NCBI GenBank assembly: GCA_017798145.1
Contig: CP059069.1
Span: forward strand, 519,226-543,225
Reading direction: 5' to 3'
Length of the DNA: 24,000 bases
Source of the DNA: Akkermansiaceae bacterium
Lineage (GTDB): Bacteria; Verrucomicrobiota; Verrucomicrobiia; Verrucomicrobiales; Akkermansiaceae
This document shows, one piece after another, positions 3,370 through 24,000 of the stretch. Each line of letters starts with the position of its first letter. Position 1 is the stretch's first letter. The notes below the pieces were generated by a model. It saw nothing but the letters and a program-made list of their open reading frames with translations, did no database searches and was not told the origin of the DNA. Position numbers and translations under genes: made by a program.

Positions 3370-5558
3370 AGGAAGAGGATAAAGACATCGATCTGCACAA
3401 GCGCTTCAAGCGCAATGTCTACGATCACGCACTGGTGGCCACCTTCACCTTCAGCCCTCGGTTTTTTGAGGAATACATGCTTGAGCGCTTCAAAGCCCTC
3501 CAAGGCAAAGGCGGCGTCACCGTATTTTTGGATCGCGGCCAGTATGAGGAAATCATCGAGGCAGCGTCCAGGGGTAACGGCTGGACGCCAAAGCTGGCGA
3601 ACCGACGCTACCTGCTGCATCCCATCTCGGTTCACGGGGTTTTTCACCCGAAAGTGTTCCTTCTCAGCTCAGCGAATCGCGGTCTTCTGGTCGTAGGTAG
3701 CGCGAACTTTTCGCAGGATGGACTCGGCGGCAATGCCGAGTTGGTCTCGGTCTTTGAGTTTGAGGCGGGGAAAAAGGAGGAAGCCCTTCCGCTTTTCCAA
3801 TCCGCCTTCCGCTTCTTCGAGGAGCTCTCCGGCCGCTGGCCGGGTAAGGAGGTGGCATCGAATGTCGATGAAGTCCGCAGGGATGCGCCGTGGCTTACCG
3901 AGACACCCGATTCTCCTGTCTCTGATTCGTTGCCCACCCTCCTGCACAACCTGGATCATGCGCTATGGCCACAGATCGTCGATGGCCTCGGCTCTGTCGA
4001 TGAAATCAGTTTGGTCTCCAGGTTCTTCGACAGCTCGCCCGCCATACTTGATTCAATCTGCAGGGGTCTGGGCACTCCGAAATTCAAAATCCACACCCAA
4101 CCAAAGCGAGGCACCCTCACACCGGATTGGCTAAGCCACCCTTTTGCCCGGGACGAGAGGCTCAGCATTCGCCTCTGCCAATACGGTGACGGCGAACACT
4201 ACCAACCACTCCACGCTAAAGGCTATGCGCTCACCAAAGGCAGCAAGACCACTCTGGCGATCGGTAGCGCGAACTTCAGCACGTCAGCCCTGCTCAGGCC
4301 TGCGGCATCGGGCAACGTCGAAGCCATGCTCCTCTATCCGCCGGTGACCAAGAGTTCGCTCGACGCGGACAAACTCTTCGATCCCCTGGGGTCTGCCAAG
4401 AAAGTCACCCATCCGGAACAACTCGCGGTTCCAGCGGACGCAGAGTTCGAACCGACACACACCGCGAGTTCGTTCTCAATCCTTCTCGAAGAGGCAAGGT
4501 TGGAAGAAAGCGTGCTAATCCTTTCAACGAAGGCGCAGGAACCGGGACTTTCCTGCCGCCTCTCACAGGCGAATGTGGCGTCCACGGTGCTCCCCGTGGG
4601 TGCAATTCGCCAGTTTGACACCCGACTCGAACCTCCAGCAAAGTGGATCCGAAGAATGTCCGAATCTCCTACGGTCGCCCAGCTTGTGCGCTACAAGGGA
4701 GATTCCTGGGAGGCCGTCAGCAATCCAGTCTTGGTTGCCGCCATCTTCGACCCCGAAACAGGCAAGGGAGCCCGCCAGAGTCGGCGACTCCGGGAGGCTG
4801 TGGAAAGTCCGCAACGCTTCATGGGTGTACTTCGCGAACTCTGTGAAGGCAATGATGAAGCTGCCCTGAAGAGCTTTCTGGCCAACTGCAACATTCCCAT
4901 TGATCTGAATCTACGCACCATCAGACCGGGCAAGCATAGAACTGCATCCACAGATGGCCCTCCAACTGGGTTTGGTGATCTGGGCGGACGCAATCTCCGA
5001 CACTTCGAACAGCTTCACGACGCAGCCATAGCTTTTGCCCGTCGCCACCGCACTCGCCTCTCACGGCATGTTGAGAACGGCACTGCCCGCAGCATCCCGA
5101 ACTTTCTCCACATTCTTGAAACCTTGATCTTGCTTCTGTTCAGTCAGATCGAGCGAGCCAAAGAAGGTTTGACTGCCGAGGCTCGGACAACGCTCAGCGC
5201 GGACGAATGGAAGGAGTTTCGTGAGCACCTGTCTGAATACTATCAGGAAATCGAGAAGCTCCTCGAACTGACCGTTAAGGATTACTTGCCAGGCTTACAC
5301 AAAAACGAGCGAAGAATAACTGTCCATGAGGCTTTCGGAGACGCTCCCGAAACCCTGCTCGGAATCTGCACCAAAGCCATCGCCGCCCGCCAAGAAATCG
5401 CAAAGGCGCTGGACACCAGCGTTTACGTTCAGGTCGACAACTACACCACCCAGAAGGCTCGCTTTTTCCACACCCTCCTCAGTGATGAGAAATGGAAACG
5501 CTATTTCTTCACCCTCAAGGATCTGGCCGAGGAATTGAGAAAAGGTGTCGCAGCATGA
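3366..5558 (+). CDS. PLD-superfamily (two-HKD) nuclease-like protein with a ~400-aa C-terminal domain of unknown function
   Basis: Two HxK...GSxN motifs: FHPKVFLLSSANRGLLVVGSANFS (H94 at nt 3645) and LHAKGYALTKGSKTTLAIGSANFS (H283 at nt 4212). The start overlaps the upstream stop by 4 nt. The C-terminal half looks helical and matches no motif I know. Confidence 0.85.
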   Translation: MKEEDKDIDLHKRFKRNVYDHALVATFTFSPRFFEEYMLERFKALQGKGGVTVFLDRGQYEEIIEAASRGNGWTPKLANRRYLLHPISVHGVFHPKVFLLSSANRGLLVVGSANFSQDGLGGNAELVSVFEFEAGKKEEALPLFQSAFRFFEELSGRWPGKEVASNVDEVRRDAPWLTETPDSPVSDSLPTLLHNLDHALWPQIVDGLGSVDEISLVSRFFDSSPAILDSICRGLGTPKFKIHTQPKRGTLTPDWLSHPFARDERLSIRLCQYGDGEHYQPLHAKGYALTKGSKTTLAIGSANFSTSALLRPAASGNVEAMLLYPPVTKSSLDADKLFDPLGSAKKVTHPEQLAVPADAEFEPTHTASSFSILLEEARLEESVLILSTKAQEPGLSCRLSQANVASTVLPVGAIRQFDTRLEPPAKWIRRMSESPTVAQLVRYKGDSWEAVSNPVLVAAIFDPETGKGARQSRRLREAVESPQRFMGVLRELCEGNDEAALKSFLANCNIPIDLNLRTIRPGKHRTASTDGPPTGFGDLGGRNLRHFEQLHDAAIAFARRHRTRLSRHVENGTARSIPNFLHILETLILLLFSQIERAKEGLTAEARTTLSADEWKEFREHLSEYYQEIEKLLELTVKDYLPGLHKNERRITVHEAFGDAPETLLGICTKAIAARQEIAKALDTSVYVQVDNYTTQKARFFHTLLSDEKWKRYFFTLKDLAEELRKGVAA

Positions 5559-12515: not shown

Positions 12516-12608
12516 GACTGGCACCACTACTGGCAGCCCGGTGGAAGTTTGATCTTCCGCCGGGTTGCCTCTACTTTCGATCCAACCCCAACATGGAGAC
12601 CACACCCC

Positions 12609-13178
12609 ATGCCCTACATCCGCAAAACATCCCGCAAACCCGGACGCCACTTCGTCACCCTGGACCGCCTCACAGAGGCCAACTGGCAGGTGACCGTGGA
12701 AATGGACAAGCTCGGTCTCTGGTGCGACGAACTCTATGAGATCGACGTATGGCTCGTGCCCGTTTCCTTCTGCTGCTACGGCTGGTTCCAACCGGAGGGC
12801 GACATCTACATCCCGGCTGTGACCGGAGCCAACCTATCCGATTTCATCACCAGCCATCACACACGCCTTACCGACGTCCTGCGCCACGAGTGGTCGCATG
12901 CGCTGGCCGACCGCCGGCCGGAGCTGGTCGATAGCAAACGCTTCGTCCGCACTTTCGGCGGCGACTACGATTCGCGCCACCCCGTCCGGGATCACGACCC
13001 GGATCACCACCTGACGCCCTATGCCGCCACAAGCCCTTGCGAGGACTTTGCGGAAACCTTCCACTACTACATCCGGCACAAGGGAAGGCTGCCGCTGCGC
13101 CTCGCCAACAAGACTAAGATCGCCCGCAAGTGGGAGTTCATCGAGTGGATGGCGGGTAGGATTTCTAAAGCAATCTGA
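12609..13178 (+). CDS. putative zinc metallopeptidase (HExxH)
   Basis: HEWSH lies at nt 12885-12899, with a downstream SPCEDFAETFHYYI segment typical of small zincin-like peptidases. ATG 12609 (MPYIRKTSRK) is preferred over the track's TTG 12549 because the leader word CAACCCCAACA sits 15 nt upstream, as at other starts. Confidence 0.7.
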   Translation: MPYIRKTSRKPGRHFVTLDRLTEANWQVTVEMDKLGLWCDELYEIDVWLVPVSFCCYGWFQPEGDIYIPAVTGANLSDFITSHHTRLTDVLRHEWSHALADRRPELVDSKRFVRTFGGDYDSRHPVRDHDPDHHLTPYAATSPCEDFAETFHYYIRHKGRLPLRLANKTKIARKWEFIEWMAGRISKAI

Positions 13179-13220
13179 TACTGTTCGCCCCGGCCGACAG
13201 GATCGCCCAAACTCCACATC

Positions 13221-13925
13221 ATGAAATGCCTCACTTGGAACCTCGAATGGACGAACCCGGCCAGCCGCCGGGCAAGTTTGATCAATGAACTCATCTCCGG
13301 GATCGATCCGGACGTCATCTGCTACACGGAGGTCAACAAGGACATGGTGCCAGCAGGGCACATCATCGAGGCCGATGCCGATTATGGCTATCCAATGAAA
13401 CCTGGTCGCAGAAAGGTTCTGCTCTGGAGCAAGTATCCCTGGACGCAACCCGATGCCTACGGGGATGACGAGTTGCCGAGCGGAAGGTTTGCCATGGGCG
13501 TGTGTAGAGGGATCCGCTTCGTCGGAGTCTGCATTCCTTGGCGTGATGCCCATGTGAAGACAGGGCGGCGCGACCGTGCCCCTTGGGAGGATCACATTTC
13601 CTATTGCGCAGGCCTCGGGCGCATCCTCCGGCAGCATGCCGCCGATGCGGAGCCGCTCTGCGTTTTGGGGGACTACAACCAACGAATCCCCAGGGTCAGC
13701 CAGCCGATAAATGTCGCCCAGGCTCTTGCCGAGGAGATTCCGGATGATTTTCGGATAGCTACAGCCGGTGCAACCGACCTCGAAGGCCTGAACCTCATCG
13801 ACCACATCACCGTATCAGCGGGACTTGAAATCTCGGTCACCGGATTTCTGCCGAGAACCTCCGAAGACGGAACCCACCTTTCCGACCATTCGGGAGTCGT
13901 GGCAGAACTCCAAGCCCTCGACTGA
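13221..13925 (+). CDS. endonuclease/exonuclease/phosphatase (EEP) family protein
   Basis: Motifs are in canonical EEP order: MKCLTWNLEW, DVICYTEV, VLGDYNQRI, IDHITVS and LSDHSGVVAEL. Confidence 0.85.
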   Translation: MKCLTWNLEWTNPASRRASLINELISGIDPDVICYTEVNKDMVPAGHIIEADADYGYPMKPGRRKVLLWSKYPWTQPDAYGDDELPSGRFAMGVCRGIRFVGVCIPWRDAHVKTGRRDRAPWEDHISYCAGLGRILRQHAADAEPLCVLGDYNQRIPRVSQPINVAQALAEEIPDDFRIATAGATDLEGLNLIDHITVSAGLEISVTGFLPRTSEDGTHLSDHSGVVAELQALD

Positions 13926-13974
13926 GCCATCGTCCAGCGGATCAAATCCGCGAGCCTCTACGGCCTCATTTCCG

Positions 13975-14007
13975 AGCCCGCCCGGTCACCAACCCGGCGG
14001 GCTTTTT
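13975..14007 (+). terminator. intrinsic terminator after the EEP gene
   Basis: AGCCCGCC(C)GG pairs with CCGGCGGGCT (one bulge), followed by TTTTT. Confidence 0.65.
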
Positions 14008-14030
14008 CGTGCCGTAGTTGCGGCATCTCC

Positions 14031-14180
14031 ATTTCCCCAGCCAGCCCACTACACCTCCCGTCACATTACTCCGCCCCAACCAGCCTGAATTTTAAACCAC
14101 CACCAATCCCACCACCAATCCCACCACCTCCAACGAAACCACCCGACCCAACCCCACTGCCAAAACACAACGACTCATCC
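14031..14180 (+). promoter_or_regulatory. G-depleted, C/A-rich untranslated tract (rut-like leader or ncRNA body)
   Basis: My hand count gives about 11 G in 150 nt. The tract lies between a terminator (13975-14007) and a second terminator-like hairpin (14186-14225). No plausible ORF is present. Confidence 0.35.
14097..14129 (+). repeat. 12-nt tandem repeat CCACCACCAATC, about 2.7 copies
   Basis: CCACCACCAATC occurs at 14097-14108 and 14109-14120, followed by the partial copy CCACCACCT. Confidence 0.8.
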
Positions 14181-14185
14181 GCACG

Positions 14186-14225
14186 AAGGGCGGCTCCATA
14201 CCGGGGCCGCCCTTTGTGCGTTTCC
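14186..14225 (+). terminator. terminator-like / attenuator hairpin in the leader of the DUF1257 operon
   Basis: AAGGGCGGCTCC pairs with GGGGCCGCCCTT (about 12 bp including one G-U), followed by TGTGCGTTTCC. It lies 36 nt upstream of ATG 14261 and downstream of an already complete terminator. Confidence 0.5.
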
Positions 14226-14260
14226 AGCAAAACAACAACCAACCAAATACGAACAACCAC

Positions 14261-14650
14261 ATGTCACACTTCACCACCATCCAGACCCAGATCCGGGATC
14301 TTGAAGCCTTGCGCGACGCATCCGTCGAACTCGGCCTCCAGCTCCTGGCTGATACCCAGTGCCGGGGCTACGCCGGCATTACCCGTCCCGCACCGCACGT
14401 CATCAAGCTCAAGGGCCCGTATGACATCGCTGTCGAGCCGGACAAGGAGAACCCCGGCTGCTACGGCCTCACCACCGACTGGTGGGATGGGCACGTCGCC
14501 AAGGAAGTCGGCACCGGCTACAGCCGCCTGCTGCAATCCTACGGCGTCCACAAGACCATGCGCGAGGCCGCCACACGCGGGCTGCGCCACACCCGCAGGA
14601 TCGAGGCCGACGGCACCGTCCTGCTCACCCTGGAAGGAGGTTCGCTATGA
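14261..14650 (+). CDS. DUF1257 (Ycf35-like) protein
   Basis: MSHFTTIQTQIRDLEALRDASVELGLQL... is the characteristic DUF1257 N-terminus as I remember it. ATG 14261 is preceded by the leader word CAACAACCAAC. The stop overlaps the next ATG. Confidence 0.8.
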   Translation: MSHFTTIQTQIRDLEALRDASVELGLQLLADTQCRGYAGITRPAPHVIKLKGPYDIAVEPDKENPGCYGLTTDWWDGHVAKEVGTGYSRLLQSYGVHKTMREAATRGLRHTRRIEADGTVLLTLEGGSL

Positions 14651-14847
14651 GCCGCAAGATCCTTGTCCGTGTTTCCCCAGCCGGGGAGATCAGCGTCGAG
14701 GCCGAGGGCTTCCAGGGAAAAGGCTGCGAGGCCGCCACCAAGGCGATCGAGGACGCACTCGGGAAACCCCAGGCGCGCACCCGCAAGCCGCAGTTCTGGC
14801 GACCCCAGTTCCTCCGCAACGAACAACAGCTAGGAGGCGAGGGATGA
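14647..14847 (+). CDS. DUF2997-like small protein (66 aa)
   Basis: MSRKILVRVSPAGEISVEAEGFQGKGCEAATKAIEDALGKPQARTRKPQF matches the remembered DUF2997 pattern (beta-hairpin, G-x-G-x-x-C, LG, basic tail). ATGA overlaps occur at both ends (14647-14650 and 14844-14847). Confidence 0.75.
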   Translation: MSRKILVRVSPAGEISVEAEGFQGKGCEAATKAIEDALGKPQARTRKPQFWRPQFLRNEQQLGGEG

Positions 14848-15140
14848 AATCCACCCTCCGCTTCAACCCCGGCGGTCACATCGACTGCCTCTACACCGAA
14901 GCGATCGATCTCCGTGCGCTCGGGCGACTTCATGTCGTCCGGGCCACGGACATCCGTTTCTGTGAAAAGACCCAACTGTGGAAAGTCCGCTGTGCCTCGT
15001 CCGGCCAGCTCCTCCACAGCGATCCCTCCCGCGAGGCATGCCTCGTCTGGGAACATGAAAACCTCGGCCCACCCAATCCGGAACCACCGAGACCCACCGG
15101 CACACTGCCAAACCTCAGACCGGTCACAGGCCGGCTCTGA
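14844..15140 (+). CDS. hypothetical small protein (98 aa)
   Basis: This is the C-terminal 98 codons of track ORF 14214-15140, starting at the ATG that overlaps the DUF2997 stop: MKSTLRFNPGGHIDCLYTEAIDLRALGRLHVVRATDIRF... It is wedged between two recognisable genes of the same operon. Confidence 0.55.
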   Translation: MKSTLRFNPGGHIDCLYTEAIDLRALGRLHVVRATDIRFCEKTQLWKVRCASSGQLLHSDPSREACLVWEHENLGPPNPEPPRPTGTLPNLRPVTGRL

Positions 15141-15163
15141 CAACCAAGAACCAATCCAAACTT

Positions 15164-16690
15164 ATGAACCTCACCACCTACCTCCGCGCCGGATACCCCG
15201 GCCTCGCCATCATCAGTTCCGAGGAAGCTCGTGCCGAAGCGGAAATCGCCAACGCATGCACTTCCCTGAAACGCAAACTCCTCGCCTGGTCCTCCACGGA
15301 GGGTCTTGCCGATGTTAAGGAAGGGCGCGTCACCCCGTGCCCCGACCCACTCGATGCCTTCCAGCTTCTGGACGGCGTCTTCGCCTCGGACAAGCCACGC
15401 CACGTCGTGCTGCTCCGGGATCTCCAACTCCACCTCGACCAGAGCGACCCCATGCTCGTGCGCCGCATCAAGGACGCACTGCGCATCGCCAAGGCCAACG
15501 GCCACACCATCGTCCTGCTCGGCTGCCGTTTGAAACTGCCCGCCGAACTCGAACACGAGATCACCCACGTTGATTTCGACCTGCCCGACCCGGCGGGGCT
15601 TCACACCGTGCTCGATGGCATCATCAAGTCGGCGAAGCTAAAGAATGTCCACGAGGTGATGCGGGAGGCAGCCGTCCAGGCAGCCCTCGGCCTCACCACC
15701 ACGGAAGCGGAGAACGCGTTCGCCCTGTCGGTCATAGAGACCAATGGGATCGACCACCGCATCATCTCCCGTGAAAAGGCGAACACGCTGAAACGAAACG
15801 GCCTCGTCGAGGTCGTCGGGAACGCCACCTCCCTGGAGGACATCGGCGGACTCGGCCTGCTCAAGGAATGGCTGCAACGCCGCTCCGGTGCATTCAGCGA
15901 ATCCGCGAAAGCCTACGGGCTGCCCGCACCGAAAGGATTACTCATCGTCGGCATCCCCGGCACCGGGAAATCGCTCACCGCGAAAGCCACCGCCGGAGCA
16001 TTCGGCCTGCCGTTGCTGCGCCTCGACATGGGGCGTGTGTTCGGTGGCATCGTCGGCCAGTCGGAAGCCAACCTCCGCTCCGTCATCCAGACCGCCGAGG
16101 CCATCGCCCCGTGCGTGCTGTGGATCGATGAAATAGAAAAAGGCTTCTCCGGAAGCTCTTCGAGCGGCAGCACCGATGGCGGCACCTCCTCCCGTGTCTT
16201 CGGCTCGTTTTTGAGTTGGATGCAGGAGAAGACCAAGGCGGTGTTCGTCGTGGCGACGGCGAATGATGTTTCCAAGCTCCCGCCCGAGTTCCTGCGCAAG
16301 GGAAGGTTCGACGAAATGTTCTTCGTAGATTTACCCGACGCCTTCGAGCGTGCGCAGATCTGGGACATCGTCATCGCCCGGCACAAGCGCAAGCCAACCG
16401 ACTTCGACACCGTCGTCCTCGCCCGCGCCTGCGAGCAGTTCACCGGGGCGGAGATCGAGGCCGTGTTCATCGACGCCATGCACGAGGCCTATGCCGAAGG
16501 CGAGGAACCCAAGCCCAAGCACATCCTCGAAGCCATCAACGGCACCGTCCCCCTGGCGCAGCTCATGGACGGCAAGATCGCCGCGTTGAGACATTGGGCG
16601 AAAGGCCGTGCCCGTGAGGCAGCGAGCCGGAGCAACACCACGTCGTCGGCATCCTACCGCCCCAACAGACGGATGTCCGGGATGAACTGA
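15164..16690 (+). CDS. Ycf46-like AAA+ ATPase
   Basis: Walker A is GIPGTGKS (nt 15950-15973; K269 at 15968) and Walker B is CVLWIDEIEKGF. The region GGTSSRVFGSFLSWMQEK...VFVVATANDVSKLPPEFLRKGRFDEMFFVDLP closely follows the Ycf46 family sequence as I remember it. The length (508 aa) and a non-AAA N-terminal domain also fit. Confidence 0.9.
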   Translation: MNLTTYLRAGYPGLAIISSEEARAEAEIANACTSLKRKLLAWSSTEGLADVKEGRVTPCPDPLDAFQLLDGVFASDKPRHVVLLRDLQLHLDQSDPMLVRRIKDALRIAKANGHTIVLLGCRLKLPAELEHEITHVDFDLPDPAGLHTVLDGIIKSAKLKNVHEVMREAAVQAALGLTTTEAENAFALSVIETNGIDHRIISREKANTLKRNGLVEVVGNATSLEDIGGLGLLKEWLQRRSGAFSESAKAYGLPAPKGLLIVGIPGTGKSLTAKATAGAFGLPLLRLDMGRVFGGIVGQSEANLRSVIQTAEAIAPCVLWIDEIEKGFSGSSSSGSTDGGTSSRVFGSFLSWMQEKTKAVFVVATANDVSKLPPEFLRKGRFDEMFFVDLPDAFERAQIWDIVIARHKRKPTDFDTVVLARACEQFTGAEIEAVFIDAMHEAYAEGEEPKPKHILEAINGTVPLAQLMDGKIAALRHWAKGRAREAASRSNTTSSASYRPNRRMSGMN

Positions 16691-16735
16691 CCCGCGCCGT
16701 AGCTGTGGCATCCTGCCGCATGCCCCATAATATCC

Positions 16736-16768
16736 CTGCCAGGGAGAGTTCCATCCTCTCTCTGGCAG
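16736..16768 (+). terminator. strong hairpin after the AAA+ gene (probable terminator, weak U-tract)
   Basis: CTGCCAGGGAGAG pairs with CTCTCTCTGGCAG (13 bp including one G-U, 7-nt loop). The tail is CATGCCTTTCCC. Confidence 0.45.
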
Positions 16769-17004
16769 CATGCCTTTCCCTCTCAAAACTCCCGCACCCA
16801 ACCCTTCCTAACTCCCCGCCACCCATCCCTCAAGAGCGCTCGGCAGCGCGGCTTACAAAGCCGTGATCCTCACCTCCCACCTCACTCGATACCTCCAGCG
16901 GTAGTCTGAACACAAGCGCCGTTGAACGAAACAGCTGGGGTGCACCCGAAAGGCCGCCCCAAGTCGCTTGTGCGGGGAAAGAAAAACGGTAAAAGAGCAA
17001 AAGG

Positions 17005-18027
17005 TTAAAGGGTAAAACGACGCCTTCTGGTCAGCAACGCGCTAGCTGACAATACCGTCAAAAGTAATGCCGACGGCTCGGGGACACTGGCGACGCGGAA
17101 CCCCACGTAGTCGAGCTCGTTCGGGGGCGTGTTGACGTTGCTTTTGGACGCGGGCAGGGAGTCGGAGTTGTTGGCCCACGAACCGCCCCGCATCCCGCGC
17201 GTCGAACCAAAGACCACCGCATCGTTCCATTCAAACACGTTCCCCGCTTGGTCGTTCGTTCCATACGCGCTCTCCGAATTCGGGCCATACGCACCGACAT
17301 CCGTCAGATAGTTCTGGCTGCTGCTGTAGCTACCGCTCTGCGTCACCGCAAAATCCGTGCTATCGAAGTAATTCGCCGCGCCTGCCGCGCCGACGGTGTT
17401 GCTGTTGATCGTATTGCTCTGCGTAGCCTGCGCCCAGTAGCCGCCCACTCCGGGACCGCCCTTGTTCGGATCATAATACGCCGCCTTATACCACTCGTTT
17501 TCCGAAGGGAGCCACACCGTGGCTCCCACGTTCTTCGAGGACCCCACGCCGCTGGTCGCGCCGTTGAGCGTGTAGGCTCCGTCTTCCGTGGTGGATGCGT
17601 TCTGCGCTCCCGTCGTCTGGCCGTTGTGCAGCCAGTTGGTGAAACGCGCCGCATCGAACCAGCTCACGTAGGTGATGGGGCGGTTCCCGCTGCCGAGCAC
17701 GGTGTAGGAATAATCTCCCGATGTGCCGATGCGCTGGATGCCCGAAATGTTCGCGTTCGTCTGCATGGAAGTGTTGTAAAGCGCGTAGGTGTCCGTTTTG
17801 GCCACGGCGTTGAGGAACGCGGCATACTGCGAGATGGTCGTCTCGTTCTTCGAAATCTTGTATTCATAGCCAACCGCGCCGTAAAGACCGCCGGTCGCCG
17901 CGTCGTTCGCGTTGTTGATGTCACCGACGGTGACGTAGTCTATGCTGACAACGGCGAAGGCCGGAGTTCCAAGGGCGATGCCAGCCAGAACGGCGAGCCT
18001 GCGGGAGGGAATAATAGGGAGTTTCAT
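17005..18027 (-). CDS. FGE/SUMF1-domain (formylglycine-generating-enzyme fold) protein with signal peptide and PEP-CTERM anchor
   Basis: The signal peptide is MKLPIIPSRRLAVLAGIALGTPAFA. FGE-fold motifs include RPITYVSWFDAARFTNWL, VFEWNDA, RGGSW and GFRVA. The C-terminal VPEPSALLLTVLSASALLTRRRR is a PEP-CTERM sorting signal. Confidence 0.85.
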   Translation of the reverse strand: MKLPIIPSRRLAVLAGIALGTPAFAVVSIDYVTVGDINNANDAATGGLYGAVGYEYKISKNETTISQYAAFLNAVAKTDTYALYNTSMQTNANISGIQRIGTSGDYSYTVLGSGNRPITYVSWFDAARFTNWLHNGQTTGAQNASTTEDGAYTLNGATSGVGSSKNVGATVWLPSENEWYKAAYYDPNKGGPGVGGYWAQATQSNTINSNTVGAAGAANYFDSTDFAVTQSGSYSSSQNYLTDVGAYGPNSESAYGTNDQAGNVFEWNDAVVFGSTRGMRGGSWANNSDSLPASKSNVNTPPNELDYVGFRVASVPEPSALLLTVLSASALLTRRRRFTL

Positions 18028-19644: not shown

Positions 19645-19709
19645 CCAGCTTTGCTCAATGAATGATTGTGAATTGCGTGGTGCGCGGAAGTTTGCAAGCA
19701 TTCCTCCCG

Positions 19710-20453
19710 ATGTCCGATGACGAGTATTACTCCCCTACGCCTTCTTCGTCGAAAGGCCTTTTTCCGACGACACGGTGGACCATCGTCCGGAATCTTTCGG
19801 ATGGCGAACGGCGGATCAGATTTCCCGCTTGGGATGAGTTTGTCACCTCCTACCGCAAGCCGCTGGAATACTGGCTAGTCGCCCGCTGCCGGGATCCTCA
19901 CTTGTCGGAGGAATTGGTGCAGTCATTCCTGGCCAAGATGTCGAGCCATGAGCACGCTCTGAACTCGCTGGATCCATCCAAAGGGAGGCTCCGTTCCTGG
20001 TTGCTGGTCTGCCTCAAGCGCCATTGGCTGGATAACCTGCCGAAGTCTTTCGACGAACTGCCTGATGGATATGCGGATGCCGATGTGAAACCGGATGAGG
20101 ACTTCGACGGTGTGTGGGCAAGGAGCGTCGCGCAACGTGTCGTCCGGCAACTTCGGTCCGAGTATGCATCGCGTAAAAGAGTCGATCTTTTCGACGCACT
20201 GCTCGGCGTGATCGACGGGGCGGCGATTGAGGAACGCACCGCCCTCCATGTGCGTTTCGGAATGACGGCGAACACCTTCGACCAAGCCCTGGCACGCCTT
20301 CGCGAGCGCCTCGCGCTGCGCCTGAGGGAGGAAGTCGCCGCCACATTGGTTGACGGACAGGATAGCGATGTGGATGACGAACTTCGTCACCTGATCCTCG
20401 TCCTCGGCCGCAACGGAGGCTTTGCACCGGAGTCTGCTGGCGCGGAAACATGA
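19710..20453 (+). CDS. divergent ECF-type sigma-70 family factor (putative)
   Basis: The N-terminus, FPTTRWTIVRNL...AWDEFVTSYRKPLEYWLVARCRDPHLSEELVQSFLAKM, resembles the T-x-W-S/T-x-V opening and region 2 of planctomycete/verrucomicrobial ECF sigmas that pair with Ser/Thr kinases. An HTH-like TALHVRFGMTANTFDQALARLRERL lies near the C-terminus. A kinase gene lies directly downstream. Confidence 0.55.
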   Translation: MSDDEYYSPTPSSSKGLFPTTRWTIVRNLSDGERRIRFPAWDEFVTSYRKPLEYWLVARCRDPHLSEELVQSFLAKMSSHEHALNSLDPSKGRLRSWLLVCLKRHWLDNLPKSFDELPDGYADADVKPDEDFDGVWARSVAQRVVRQLRSEYASRKRVDLFDALLGVIDGAAIEERTALHVRFGMTANTFDQALARLRERLALRLREEVAATLVDGQDSDVDDELRHLILVLGRNGGFAPESAGAET

Positions 20454-20508
20454 ATAATCCCTGTCAGGTTTCTGCCGATTGAGCGTTCTTACCAGACAGG
20501 TCGCAACT

Positions 20509-21924
20509 ATGACCGGAGAACCCATACCAGAACTTTCAGAACAAACCCTCGCAGGATTCTTCCGCGAAGCTTTGCGTGCTGGTAACCGGGCACCTCGCCC
20601 CACGCCACCGGAATGGCTGCAGGACGACGACTTCCCCTACGTGGTCGGTCGTTTCGTCGGACGCGGCGGATCGGGTATGGTGTGGAAGGCCGAGGGGCGC
20701 GGGGGCGGCGGGACGGTCGCCCTGAAGCTGGTTTCTTTCCGTGGTGATCGCCGGATCAGGCTGCGCTGGGAGAACGAATGCGATGCGCTGTCCCGTGTTG
20801 ACCATCCGAACCTCGTGAAACTCATCGACTTCGGCCTGGCTCCCGATCTCGATGCCGGTTGGGTGACGCTGGAGTGGATCGAGGGCTCGGATCTCGCTAC
20901 CGTGCTCGGGGATAGAGGAAGCCTTCCCGTCGCGGAGGCAGTGGAATTTACCAAGCAGATCGTTGCGGCGCTTTCGGCACTCCATGGCGCGGGGCTATTG
21001 CACCGCGATATCAAGCCGGGGAACATCCTTTTTGAAGAATCCTCCAAACGCTGGGTTTTGGCGGATTTTGGCCTCGCTTATGACCTCGGTCAGGACGCCG
21101 AGGCAAGGGTCACCCGGACACTGGAAACGCCAGCCACACCCGGCTATGCCGCCCCCGAGAGGGATCAGCCAGGCGGACATTCCGATACCAGAGGCGATCA
21201 GTATTCGCTAGCCTTCACCATTTGGGAAATGCTCGCTGGCAGCCGCCCGGCGGGTTCGTTCCCCATGCTGCACACCCTATGCCGCTGTCCGGTGGGAGTG
21301 GATCATGTGCTCCGGAAAGCACTCTCAACCCATCCCAAAGATCGCTACAGTGATCTGCGTGGATTCGAGCGGGCATTCCTGAGAGCCGTCCGCCGTCCAC
21401 CTTGGATCAGACCGCTCCTTTTGGTCATCTCCTTGGCCGCTATAACGGCGATCCTGTATCTCGGACTTAGGCCCGAACCTTTCCCAAGGGAATTTCACAG
21501 CGGACCTCTCACCGTCACCGAAGGACGGGAGCACTACATGGAGATCGATCTGACTCTGGAGGAAAGCGGCGAATTTCTCGCCGTCGTCCACACAAGGAGC
21601 GGGGATCCGTTCTTCGGCTTCACCGGAAAAGCTCGCCTTATCTGGCGGGATGGTGATGGGAATGTCCTCAAAACGCAGGACAGCAATCCGCTTGGTGTGA
21701 ACGGCCGGTTCATCCCCGGCACACCCCATGAGCGCATTGATTATTGGAGCGACAGCCTCCCGCCGGAAATGGCTACCAAAGTCGAACGCGTCGATTTCCG
21801 CGCCAACCCCGGCGGAATCAGCAAGGAAGCCCGGGACAAGGCGAACATCGAAGGAGCCAAAAAGGATCTGCAAAAGGCGAAGGAAGGCTTGGGGAAAGCA
21901 TGGGAGAGTTTGAGGGCTGAGTGA
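20509..21924 (+). CDS. Hanks-type Ser/Thr protein kinase with one TM segment and an unknown extracytoplasmic domain
   Basis: It has GRGGSGMVWKA (G-loop), VALKLV, HRDIKPGNIL, DFGLA and GYAAPE, a TM segment PLLLVISLAAITAILYLGL, and about 150 aa outside the membrane. ATG 20509 is preferred over the track's TTG 20479. Confidence 0.9.
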   Translation: MTGEPIPELSEQTLAGFFREALRAGNRAPRPTPPEWLQDDDFPYVVGRFVGRGGSGMVWKAEGRGGGGTVALKLVSFRGDRRIRLRWENECDALSRVDHPNLVKLIDFGLAPDLDAGWVTLEWIEGSDLATVLGDRGSLPVAEAVEFTKQIVAALSALHGAGLLHRDIKPGNILFEESSKRWVLADFGLAYDLGQDAEARVTRTLETPATPGYAAPERDQPGGHSDTRGDQYSLAFTIWEMLAGSRPAGSFPMLHTLCRCPVGVDHVLRKALSTHPKDRYSDLRGFERAFLRAVRRPPWIRPLLLVISLAAITAILYLGLRPEPFPREFHSGPLTVTEGREHYMEIDLTLEESGEFLAVVHTRSGDPFFGFTGKARLIWRDGDGNVLKTQDSNPLGVNGRFIPGTPHERIDYWSDSLPPEMATKVERVDFRANPGGISKEARDKANIEGAKKDLQKAKEGLGKAWESLRAE

Positions 21925-22062
21925 ACATCCCAGTATCCCGTTGATTCGAAGTCTCGACGTTTTAGAGACTCTAGATTGCTCCGGAAATTTCAATGCAGAG
22001 ATATCGAGCAGAATTGGCTCTGCTGAATTTGGATGATCTTTTTTTAGACCTGCTGTCACGTT

Positions 22063-22098
22063 TTGGAATTTGGGTCGTTTCACCTGATGAAATTCCAA
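22063..22098. promoter_or_regulatory. 9-bp inverted repeat ending 1 nt before the start codon of the 148-aa gene
   Basis: TTGGAATTT (22063-22071) and AAATTCCAA (22090-22098) are separated by 18 nt. The ATG is at 22100. Confidence 0.3.
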
Positions 22099-22099
22099 A

Positions 22100-22546
22100 A
22101 TGAAAACACAAAAGATATCCATTGAACTGCCAGGGACTCCGAAGTTTGTGCCGCCTCTCATTGGTGGTGATGCCGAATTTAAGGGCCACGGGCCTGACGT
22201 TCATGTTTCAGCGCGGCTTCGCGTGCGGAATGGGAATGAGTTGTGGGCGACGATCACGATGCACGCCAAGGAAACGAAGAAAGACTACACGGAGGTCAGT
22301 GGTTCTGCCGACTATCTGATGTGGAAACAGGAGGGCGGAGCGATTCTCCGCATCGTCTCCGATTCGTTCTCCGAGTGCCGGTATAGAGACACGGATCATG
22401 ACGATGATGTTCTTGTAATGGGTGCGGGTGAGCTAGTCAGGGAGTTCCGTTGCGTCGGAGACACGAAGGGCAAGGAAGCAGGCTCCAGAACGGGCGTGAC
22501 CGTGACATTCAATCCAGTGGTGATCGATGTCGTATCGCCGGAGTGA
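22100..22546 (+). CDS. hypothetical protein (148 aa)
   Basis: It is the only sizeable ORF here and has protein-like composition (predicted beta-rich, acidic patch DTDHDDD). GC is lower than in flanking genes by eye. No family recognised. Confidence 0.55.
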   Translation: MKTQKISIELPGTPKFVPPLIGGDAEFKGHGPDVHVSARLRVRNGNELWATITMHAKETKKDYTEVSGSADYLMWKQEGGAILRIVSDSFSECRYRDTDHDDDVLVMGAGELVREFRCVGDTKGKEAGSRTGVTVTFNPVVIDVVSPE

Positions 22547-22567
22547 TTTTTTAAACCACATGGAATT

Positions 22568-23386
22568 ATGAGTAAGGATACGAGTAATCTAGCACAGGGC
22601 TACAATAACTTCGAGCACCATGAGATTGCGGAAAAAGCTTGGGCATTGGTGGTTAAGCGGGTGAGGTTCTTCTTGCTTCCCTCCGCGTTGATTCTTGCCT
22701 TTGCCGGATGGGGCACGTGGTCACTTCGGCAATCGACCGAGTCGATCAAGGGGATTGAGACTAACATCAAGAGCATCGAGGAAAACATTAAGAGTGCTGA
22801 AGAAGCGACAAGTGCTCAAGTCGTGCGAGTTAAGAAGCTGGCGGACGAGGCCGAAGCGCAAATGCCGGATGTTGCAGCTTTGAACGACGCCTCGGAAAGG
22901 CAGAAGAGTGAGTTTAACAGACTTCTGGACGCTCATAAGTCTTTAAATATGGCCTTGTTACAGCTCGCAGAGGTGTCGAACGATCCAGAGCTTCGAACTA
23001 GCCTCGAGGCTGCACAAGAGGCGATGGAGACCCTCCAGAAGGAGGTGAATCTATTTTTCTGCAAGCTCGGGAATGTGCACGAAGGCAAATCTGGCGACCT
23101 TTCGTGGACTGAAGAGCTTTTTGCAAGTGAGGGCGGATGGGACGATGTAGGGCCTCCGAAAGAAGGCGATATAATCCGTGCCAATACCGATGTCTATATT
23201 CGAGAGGGCTTTCCCGTCCGCCGGGACACGGGATTATATCTACGCCCTGTTAGAGGAGTCATCAAAGAGGGTAGCACCTTGGTCGTCCGATCCGTTAAGC
23301 CACATAAAGTCCGTGATGAGACTCATTATTGGATCTCATTTTCGCCCGACTCTCTAACCGAACCAGATCCGGAGACGCACGAATGA
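22568..23386 (+). CDS. membrane-anchored coiled-coil protein with a C-terminal SH3-like domain (272 aa)
   Basis: It has a TM segment FFLLPSALILAFAGWGTWSL, heptad-like IKGIETNIKSIEENIKSAEEA... and a C-terminal GDIIRANTDVYIREGFPV...GVIKEGSTLVVRSV...THYWISF (SH3b-like pattern). The stop overlaps the next ATG. Confidence 0.6.
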   Translation: MSKDTSNLAQGYNNFEHHEIAEKAWALVVKRVRFFLLPSALILAFAGWGTWSLRQSTESIKGIETNIKSIEENIKSAEEATSAQVVRVKKLADEAEAQMPDVAALNDASERQKSEFNRLLDAHKSLNMALLQLAEVSNDPELRTSLEAAQEAMETLQKEVNLFFCKLGNVHEGKSGDLSWTEELFASEGGWDDVGPPKEGDIIRANTDVYIREGFPVRRDTGLYLRPVRGVIKEGSTLVVRSVKPHKVRDETHYWISFSPDSLTEPDPETHE

Positions 23387-24000
23387 ACCCCATCATCTAC
23401 GTACGCGGCTATGCGGGAACCGGGTCGGCGGTGGAGCGGGCGGTGGAGTCGCCCTATTGCGGCTTCAATGACGGCAGCAGTAAGGTCCGGGTCGAGCCGG
23501 ACGGCTCGCCAGCGCTGCAGCTTTTCGAGAGTCCGCTGGTGCGATTGATGAAAGAACACGGCTACGAGGATTTCTTCGTCCGTGTGATCGGTGATCGGGT
23601 TGAGGTGCTGCGTGGGGGATCGAGATCGAAGGTCACGGAGCGGTCGCTCTGGGTTTTCCGATACTACGATGAAGCTTCCTCAGAGGTGGACTCTGGGAAC
23701 CGGAAGAGAATCGAGGATCTGGCGTCGGATCTTGGAAGGGTGGTCGAGTTTGTGCGTGATGAGACGGGAGCTGCGAAGGCGGATCTGGTAGCGCATTCGA
23801 TGGGCGGGCTGGTGGCCCGCAGTCTGATCCAGAGGAACTGGACGAAGACGGCGCATCAGAAAATCGGCAAGCTCTTCACCTACGGGACACCCCATGGCGG
23901 CATTCATTTCCGTGACGGGCTGGGTTTGTTGGAGCGTGTCCGTGATCTGGTGGGACCCAACGAGGCGGATAGCTTCGGGCCGAAACGGATGCGGGCGTTC
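23383..24000 (+). CDS. lipase-like alpha/beta hydrolase (class-2 lipase / PGAP1-like), 3' end outside the window
   Basis: The sequence MNPIIYVRGYAGTG...ADLVAHSMGGLVARSLI carries a GxSxG nucleophile elbow (HSMGG) in the same context as small Bacillus-type lipases, followed by YGTPHGG. The frame stays open to the last base of the window. An ATGA overlap with the upstream gene lies at 23383-23386. Confidence 0.8.
   Translation, partial: MNPIIYVRGYAGTGSAVERAVESPYCGFNDGSSKVRVEPDGSPALQLFESPLVRLMKEHGYEDFFVRVIGDRVEVLRGGSRSKVTERSLWVFRYYDEASSEVDSGNRKRIEDLASDLGRVVEFVRDETGAAKADLVAHSMGGLVARSLIQRNWTKTAHQKIGKLFTYGTPHGGIHFRDGLGLLERVRDLVGPNEADSFGPKRMRAF

Follow-up and report, generated by a model that had tools for sequence, protein, structure and literature searches.

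The window analyzed here, a 24,000-nt stretch of DNA from an Akkermansiaceae bacterium (519,226–543,225 of a 4.39-Mb single-contig genome, labeled G000), ends in three co-directional genes on the plus strand. Gene A (22100–22546) encodes a 148-aa protein labeled DUF8251 (PF26770) that is all-beta and predicted to be cytosolic; gene B (22568–23386) encodes a 272-aa protein with an N-terminal transmembrane (TM) helix, a coiled-coil-like stretch, and a conserved C-terminal domain of about 100 residues with an SH3b-like motif; and gene C (23383–24000) encodes a predicted lipase-fold hydrolase and runs past the window edge. We conclude, with a probability of roughly 60%, that these genes belong to a rare accessory operon, A–J, which lies on an integrative element and whose most likely role is the synthesis and export of a lipid-derived small molecule. 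A first-pass annotation of the window had read them as a three-gene cluster that might constitute a membrane-targeting effector system.

Gene organization and base composition

The window contains the 5′ 618 of the 1452 nt of gene C. In the rightward extension of the window (locus L002; loci are denoted by L numbers hereafter), where C occupies 3609–5060, the full protein was found to consist of 483 amino acid residues, with its end at genome position 544,059, and seven further genes, D–J, followed it. The ten genes A–J are co-directional and span about 9.5 kb (genome 541,325–550,855). A and B are separated by a 21-nt gap and B and C share an ATGA overlap, as had been read from the window. All junctions from B to J overlap (six by ATGA, one by TGATG, and one by 20 nt), including that between the stop codon of C and the start codon of D, and terminator-like sites showed no excess over the number expected from shuffled sequences. 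These overlaps and the lack of a terminator excess suggest that A, B, and C are the head of the ten-gene string, and A–J most likely form a single operon. The three-gene unit originally proposed was therefore not upheld, since the chain of overlapping stop and start codons runs through seven genes past C. Except for generic paralogues of D, H, and J, the A–J genes are single-copy in the genome.

Gene A lies 175 nt downstream of a kinase gene, and the AT-rich spacer (21925–22099, plus strand; G+C content 41.7%) is presumed to be the promoter and leader of the operon. A scan for promoter-like sites gave no excess over the shuffle expectation. The leader upstream of A was not conserved in L117, L115, or L015, and a 9-bp inverted repeat before the start of A (22063–22098) was not conserved upstream of its close homologues at L117/L014 and L115.

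The G+C content of the block 21925–23386 was 50.7%, which corresponds to the 1.4th percentile of same-size windows of the genome (mean, 61.0%; standard deviation, 3.1%). The computed profile thus confirmed the compositional shift noted by eye in the first-pass annotation. The values for A, B, and C were 54.6%, 51.2%, and 60.1–60.5%, respectively; the return of C to host-like values was borne out, whereas the estimate of 45–50% was slightly low for A.

Predicted functions of D–J

D was assigned to the pyridoxal 5′-phosphate-dependent alpha-oxoamine synthases (AOS) and was approximately equidistant from KBL, BioF, serine palmitoyltransferase, and cysteate acyltransferase in the Pfam and NCBIfam comparisons. 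It is only the third-best BioF-like gene of the genome, which points to a specialized paralogue, and it was not found in 60 genomes of the family or in 400 genomes of the phylum. F matched the S-adenosylmethionine (SAM)-dependent methyltransferases. G was predicted to be a MacB/FtsX (DevC-like) permease, H a DevA-like ABC ATPase, I an HlyD/DevB-like adaptor, and J a NodT-type outer-membrane factor. In these exporter genes, the scores for MacB_PCD/FtsX, ABC_tran, HlyD, and OEP, which are generic Pfam families, all exceeded the cut-offs, and the NCBIfam cut-offs for DevC, DevA, and DevB were missed (103.7 vs 290, 187.6 vs 296, and 109.6 vs 129 bits, respectively), suggesting that G, H, and I are relatives rather than equivalogs of these proteins.

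We also considered whether C, D, and F constitute a housekeeping biotin module, with C as a BioH-type esterase, D as the 8-amino-7-oxononanoate synthase BioF, and F as the malonyl-acyl carrier protein (ACP) methyltransferase BioC. The best NCBIfam matches of D and F were indeed bioF and BioC, and several C homologues are labeled 'pimeloyl-ACP methyl ester carboxylesterase' by the Joint Genome Institute. However, the scores were far under the equivalog cut-offs (272 vs 426 bits for D against bioF and 49 vs 185 bits for F against BioC), and two better BioF-like genes and a separate bioB are present elsewhere in the genome, for which reasons this candidate was rejected. Furthermore, relatives lack the operon, an exporter stands at its end, and L018 keeps C, D, and the exporter without the methyltransferase. 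The biotin module is hardly credible as an explanation of these genes.

Protein C and its relatives

In protein C, the Pfam families PGAP1, Lipase_2, and DUF676 scored 27.2, 25.1, and 21.0 bits, just above their cut-offs of 24.3, 20.3, and 20.3, respectively, and DUF7379 scored 28.4, under its cut-off of 33. The Pfam matches were confined to the nucleophile-elbow region (residues ~116–178). Ser139 (in the motif AHSMGG), Asp255, and His277 were invariant in 34 homologues with 39–100% identity. In the AlphaFold 2 model (predicted local distance difference test score [pLDDT], 81.5; predicted template-modeling score [pTM], 0.87), the N-terminal part formed a minimal alpha/beta-hydrolase and the C-terminal part an all-beta domain. 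Foldseek matched the model with a probability of 1.00 to DUF915 hydrolases and Bacillus subtilis LipA, with target template-modeling scores (TM-scores) of 0.62–0.77, and also to the Archaeoglobus fulgidus lipase. C has no signal peptide, because its first beta strand begins at residue 4. The results support the prediction of C as a cytoplasmic two-domain lipase-fold serine hydrolase with an intact triad and a predicted lipolytic, esterase, or acyltransferase activity; family matches, triad, and fold all agree with the lipase-type serine hydrolase that had been recognized from the AHSMGG motif.

More than 3000 homologues of C, with lengths of about 480–520 aa, were found in Actinomycetota, Cyanobacteria, Pseudomonadota, Planctomycetota, and other phyla, and these are annotated only as 'esterase/lipase family protein'. 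The family is sporadic, with one full-length homologue (39% identity) in the 400 phylum genomes, and no neighbor of C was conserved across 76 loci. Within the close sub-lineage of C (56–78% identity), C is usually the first conserved gene of what appears to be a lipid-tailoring and export cluster. At L018/L019 (C, 56% identity), a sigma-like gene, a kinase gene, and two genes for unknown proteins are followed by C, a desaturase-like gene, an AOS gene, a PIN toxin-antitoxin pair, and genes for DevC, DevA, and HlyD; the counterparts of D, G, H, and I are 65%, 67%, 61%, and 36% identical, respectively, and stand in the same order as in A–J. On an 8655-bp contig, assessed from its gene table, C (57%) is preceded by genes for DUF8251 and a 334-aa protein and followed by genes for a desaturase, an AOS, a second desaturase, a FeeM-type protein, a 206-aa protein, and a methyltransferase. 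The order is an unknown gene, C, and an AOS gene at L109/L110 (75–77%); an 87-aa protein gene, C, and a desaturase-like gene at L116 (78%); and DUF8251, a 127-aa protein gene, C, and an ACP-like gene at L115 (65%). At L016, C (60%) lies among genes for FeeM-like, heme-oxygenase-like, thiol-cytolysin-like, and MacB proteins.

Two of these loci showed additional features. The AOS after the C homologue of L109 (2736–4407) is only 43% identical to D and is followed by a 119-aa open reading frame (ORF) that is 75% identical to the C-terminus of D, an arrangement that looks like a gene-replacement scar. The metagenomic cluster of L016 (3115–13985) contains two FeeM-like acyltransferases, two heme-oxygenase-like (HDO) proteins, a thiol-activated-cytolysin-family protein, a weak NPP1-like protein, and a MacB permease in addition to the C homologue, an unusual mix for a bacterium of the Planctomycetota-Verrucomicrobiota-Chlamydiota (PVC) type.

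A tRNA-Tyr integrative element carrying the proposed operon

An intact tRNA-Tyr gene is located at genome positions 625,415–625,499, and 100%-identical copies of its 3′ end, 58–61 nt in length, are present at 495,908–495,965 and 555,382–555,439 (L002 16384–16440). The three copies of the 3′ end suggest that two elements integrated in tandem. The distal element (495,966–555,381; about 59.5 kb) holds the entire window and the A–J operon, and the proximal element, of about 70 kb, lies to its right. At the outer (left) end, a native GH2 gene is followed by the repeat, then by a diverged ORF resembling tyrosine recombinases, and then by a gene similar to family-A polymerases. The recombinase-like ORF encodes 409 aa and lies 80 nt from the distal repeat; its matches to XerD (E = 6.7e-9) and Phage_integrase (E = 2e-4) were both below the curated cut-offs.

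The only DNA of L002 conserved in the genus was a stretch of about 80 nt with an abrupt end at L002 16440, which corresponds to the 3′ half of a minus-strand tRNA; the matches in the genus genomes stop exactly at the tRNA break. Within-genus DNA synteny was set aside as uninformative evidence because this tRNA fragment was the sole match. tRNA and Rfam scans of L002 gave no result, the tRNA there being truncated. Sampling within the genus (one genome for C and five for D and the kinase) gave none of these three genes, and the rest of the family sample contained a single stand-alone C homologue with 39% identity, in G327. A, B, and C lie in compositionally deviant, horizontally acquired DNA on a mobile island, which is supported by these observations.

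Other genes of the island were also recorded. The XerD-like recombinase at the left end corresponds to L148 3047–4276 (genome about 496,046–497,275), and an RtcR-like sigma-54 activator with a CARF-type sensor domain was found at L148 9532–11070 (genome about 502,531–504,069), with the family-A DNA-polymerase-like gene between the two. Just past the operon, a 463-aa PcfJ-like protein is encoded on the minus strand (L002 12291–13682; genome about 551,290–552,681); this family is known from conjugative plasmids, and its presence beside the operon fits a mobile-element backbone.

Protein A and the upstream sigma factor and kinase

The PF26770 label on A and all 18 of its homologues derives from precomputed Pfam hits of the sequence collection; a scan of A against a Pfam release without this model gave no hit. 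The AlphaFold 2 model of A was all-beta (pLDDT, 87.7; pTM, 0.83), consistent with the beta-rich protein that had been predicted, and no fold match was found in the PDB or a viral library, with TM-scores below 0.3. A literature search found no papers on DUF8251, which occurs in single and tandem cytosolic forms and as the C-terminal domain of predicted lipoproteins.

A precedes C in three diverged loci, namely G000, L115, and the 8655-bp contig. A shares 94% identity with its counterpart in L115 and at least 85% with that of the 8655-bp contig, loci at which the values of C are 65% and 57%, respectively. Recent transfer of A as a single gene was considered on account of this difference (85–94% identity vs 47–65% for the neighbors) and was rejected: between G000 and L115, identity at four-fold degenerate sites was 52% for A and 41% for C, values near saturation in both genes. 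Since these sites are nearly as diverged in A as in C, the identity pattern of A points to constraint rather than transfer, and A is, as judged from these substitutions, under very strong purifying selection.

Two genes for candidate regulators lie upstream of A on the plus strand. The first (19662–20453) encodes a 263-aa extracytoplasmic function (ECF)-like sigma factor, a candidate regulator of the operon, which is 47% identical to a Sigma70_r2 protein of L013. The second (20479–21924) encodes a 481-aa membrane Ser/Thr kinase with one TM helix at about residues 307–325 and a beta-rich C-terminal part; a sample of 60 family genomes yielded no orthologue of the kinase. A sigma-like gene and a kinase gene occupy the same position before the C-AOS-DevCAB genes of L018, and this shared arrangement suggests that the adjacent ECF-type sigma factor and Ser/Thr kinase may control expression of the operon. 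Toxin-antitoxin pairs were observed inside otherwise syntenic sigma-kinase-cargo arrangements: an Xre/RES pair in L013/L117 (4816–5682) and a PIN toxin with a small partner in L018 (13908–14563).

A 1065-aa protein encoded at L138 4559–7756 combines Pkinase and FHA domains, a TM helix, and a C-terminal, extracytoplasmic DUF8251 domain, and it was the only kinase fusion of the A family found. This fusion and the position of A just after the kinase gene hint, weakly, at a relation between A and the kinase. It could accordingly be supposed that A belongs with the upstream sigma factor and kinase, for example as a partner or substrate of the kinase, that B is an unrelated insertion, and that the biosynthetic operon starts at C. 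Kinases occur near A homologues in G000, L013/L117, and L146, the A homologue of L013/L117 lies downstream of an orthologous sigma/kinase pair, and most A-family loci lack C, which was absent beside A in 31 further metagenomic loci (A homologues with 29–85% identity). Nevertheless, there is one fusion only, and the adjacency of A and kinases may be due to chance because Ser/Thr kinases are abundant in these phyla. Moreover, A has no signal peptide, whereas the fused domain of L138 lies past the TM helix; on the 8655-bp contig, A overlaps the following gene by 4 nt, with C and lipid genes behind it; and in L115, A, the intervening gene, and C are packed closely, with about 100 nt of spacer among them. 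We regard an assignment of A to the regulators as rather unlikely.

Protein B and the hypervariable slot before C

Protein B has one TM helix at about residues 34–50, followed by a coiled-coil-like stretch with weak SMC, LmuB, and JetC-type hits at residues 53–169. The charges flanking the TM helix suggest an N-in, C-out topology. A word-indexed search returned only B, and the idea that B is a true orphan was discarded when an exhaustive HMMER search gave 10 remote relatives besides B itself at E ≤ 0.001. Eight aligned relatives had lengths of 227–336 aa and showed no more than 30% full-length identity; all began with a short tail and one TM helix, continued with a variable coiled-coil-like stretch, and ended in a conserved domain of about 100 aa. 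Of the TM, coiled-coil, and SH3-like features named in the first-pass annotation, the TM helix and the coiled-coil-like stretch were thus recovered, whereas SH3 found no Pfam match in the whole protein or in residues 170–272, and the family profile had no sequence match in the PDB; the SH3b resemblance of the C-terminal domain is at the motif level only.

No relative of B was found in the 400 phylum genomes or beside any C homologue, and a metagenome scan with a tightened B profile found no loci. One match of the B profile near a C homologue (L069) covered the TM and coiled-coil part only, with an insertion sequence (IS) element in between. In L018 and L109, the slot before C is occupied by members of one family (41% identity between the two) that are secreted and anchored at the C-terminus. 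The L016 slot holds a protein with three TM helices, that of L116 an 87-aa protein with two, that of L115 a helical 127-aa protein whose gene is likewise low in G+C content (45.6%), and that of the 8655-bp contig a 334-aa unknown protein. By these comparisons, B sits in a hypervariable, low-GC slot that is filled mostly by apparently unrelated membrane proteins.

The succession of a small unknown protein, a membrane protein, and a lipase, which the first-pass annotation had described, does recur, with a variable and often membrane-bound middle protein, in G000, L115, and the 8655-bp contig. This conserved-hypervariable-conserved pattern with a low-GC middle gene would also be expected if the three genes were a self-contained conflict module lying by chance next to a biosynthetic operon, in which C is an effector that degrades membrane lipids, the middle protein (B in this locus) serves as a sensor or targeting subunit that diversifies, and A acts as a conserved regulator or inhibitor. 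The location on a mobile island, the sporadic distribution of C (one full-length homologue in the 400 genomes), the occurrence of C homologues in variable regions (L069 by PDC-M60 and an IS element, and L111 by a STAND-like protein), and nearby toxin-antitoxin genes in L013, L018, and L113 are in line with such a module. However, PADLOC-DB 2.0 provided no model match for A, B, or C: A had no hit, B had coiled-coil-type hits only (best, LmuB, E = 1.5e-4), and the best hit of C, LmuA, was insignificant (E = 0.003). Furthermore, C is coupled by its overlap to D in a chain that reaches J, the genes that recur beside it in close relatives are those of lipid tailoring and export, and defence genes next to C are single cases. 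Co-conservation of the three genes was not found either: B is not co-conserved, A is missing from most C loci and unlinked to C outside the closest subgroup, C is missing from the 31 other A loci, and no neighbor recurs over the 76 C loci. A lipid-metabolism context, named in the first-pass annotation as a finding that would speak against an effector, was present in the close relatives of C, the genes being accessory rather than core. A stand-alone three-gene defence or effector system is not supported by these comparisons, and we consider the conflict module quite improbable.

Proposed pathway and its weighing

For the exported lipid metabolite that we favor, the following scheme is proposed. 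D would join an amino acid to an acyl thioester by condensation, and F would methylate as a SAM methyltransferase, as their family matches suggest; E may act as a FeeM/OlsB-like N-acyltransferase. C might supply, release, or transfer the acyl chain. G–H–I–J, again according to family matches, would form a MacB/DevCAB-type ABC exporter with an HlyD adaptor and a NodT outer-membrane channel, and expression may be controlled by the sigma factor and the Ser/Thr kinase. A would be a strongly constrained accessory protein of the operon in one lineage, and B a lineage-specific, probably periplasm-facing membrane protein that is not essential to the conserved chemistry.

Several findings weigh against this scheme. 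The single operon is predicted from gene layout, and the acyl-chain step of C is one that we infer. E, a protein of 205 aa, gave a weak GNAT match (Acetyltransf_5, OlsB/FeeM-type; Pfam E = 0.008, below the cut-off) and is 24% identical to a FeeM-like protein of L016, so its assignment as an acyltransferase is weak. No match assigned a function to A or B, and a described cluster of this composition was not found in the searchable literature. About 70 distant C homologues stand alone with no conserved neighbor, and C also occurs alone at L020 and L111 (60–61% identity). The Caballeronia locus L069 contains a complete candidate defence system, PDC-M60 A/B/C (12601–17734, minus strand), which consists of a histidine-kinase-like protein, a receiver protein, and a receiver protein with a nucleoside-phosphorylase effector. 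A stand-alone C homologue is located about 1 kb from this system, with the IS element on the other side.

We further propose, tentatively and as a possibility on the low side, that the operon specifies an undescribed family of exported N-acylated amino-ketones or aminolipids in Verrucomicrobia-like bacteria, switched by the sigma factor and kinase and borne by the tRNA-Tyr element, in which A would be a new constrained component, such as a lipid-binding carrier or a lipase regulator, and the protein of the B slot would tailor the site or surface.

If the operon has been interpreted correctly, an Akkermansiaceae-type bacterium carries a rare mobile lipid-metabolite pathway, in a group whose surface and secreted lipids attract interest in the context of host and community interactions. 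The pathway would include DUF8251, which has a confidently predicted fold with no structural relative, and a cytoplasmic two-domain lipase family of more than 3000 members. The locus also illustrates that three genes can look like a complete system when a window cuts a long operon shortly after its start, and reading it as an operon corrects an appealing but unsupported view of a lipase-effector defence system.

Comparison with known systems

Lipase and phospholipase effectors of conflict systems include those of the Tle/Tli pairs of the type VI secretion system (T6SS), the patatin CapV of the cyclic-oligonucleotide-based antiphage signaling system (CBASS), and the lipase-type LmuA of Lamassu. 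Like these effectors, C is a predicted lipase-type serine hydrolase on mobile, variable DNA beside small unknown genes. Unlike them, it had no sensor or cyclase, VgrG/PAAR, or immunity-lipoprotein partner among the genes scanned, and it is coupled to biosynthetic genes.

Among characterized folds, C shares a minimal alpha/beta-hydrolase core with B. subtilis LipA, the DUF915 hydrolases (3DS8, 3FLE, and 3LP5), and the A. fulgidus lipase AFL, from which it differs in sequence (13–17% identity) and in having no signal peptide. Like AFL (PDB 2ZYH, 2ZYR, and 2ZYI), C consists of an N-terminal hydrolase and a C-terminal beta domain in about 480 aa; the whole-chain TM-score of 0.25–0.27 between the two indicates that only this layout is comparable.

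DevBCA-TolC (HgdD) is the glycolipid exporter of heterocystous cyanobacteria. The best or near-best specific matches of G, H, and I were to the DevC, DevA, and DevB models (TIGR01185, TIGR02982, and TIGR02971, respectively), and an outer-membrane factor follows them. As with DevBCA, a tripartite ABC machine of the lipid-export type stands beside the genes making its cargo, the cargo being predicted in the present case.

The clusters for the stieleriacines of Planctomycetota, which encode N-acyl amino acid synthases (FeeM/NasY; PMC12479983), resemble the A–J operon in their PVC-group host, a FeeM-type N-acyltransferase (weak for E), a neighboring methyltransferase, and an amphiphilic product (predicted here). 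They differ in having ThiF and nitroreductase genes and no AOS, lipase, or ABC exporter (PMC12479983).

In the alaremycin-type cluster, as given in the accessible part of its description (PMC12006855), AlmA, an AOS homologue, is accompanied by the N-acetyltransferase AlmB and an exporter. As far as that part goes, both systems combine an AOS, an N-acyl- or acetyltransferase, and a dedicated exporter in one compact operon, and both would follow the logic of an N-acylated alpha-amino-ketone; the likeness is one of gene composition. Within the same limits, A–J differs by its lipase-fold hydrolase, its methyltransferase, and the tripartite make-up of its ABC/HlyD/NodT exporter. Together with the desaturase-like and ACP genes of its relatives, these additional genes suggest that the product of the A–J operon would be a long-chain lipid rather than a C6 acid.

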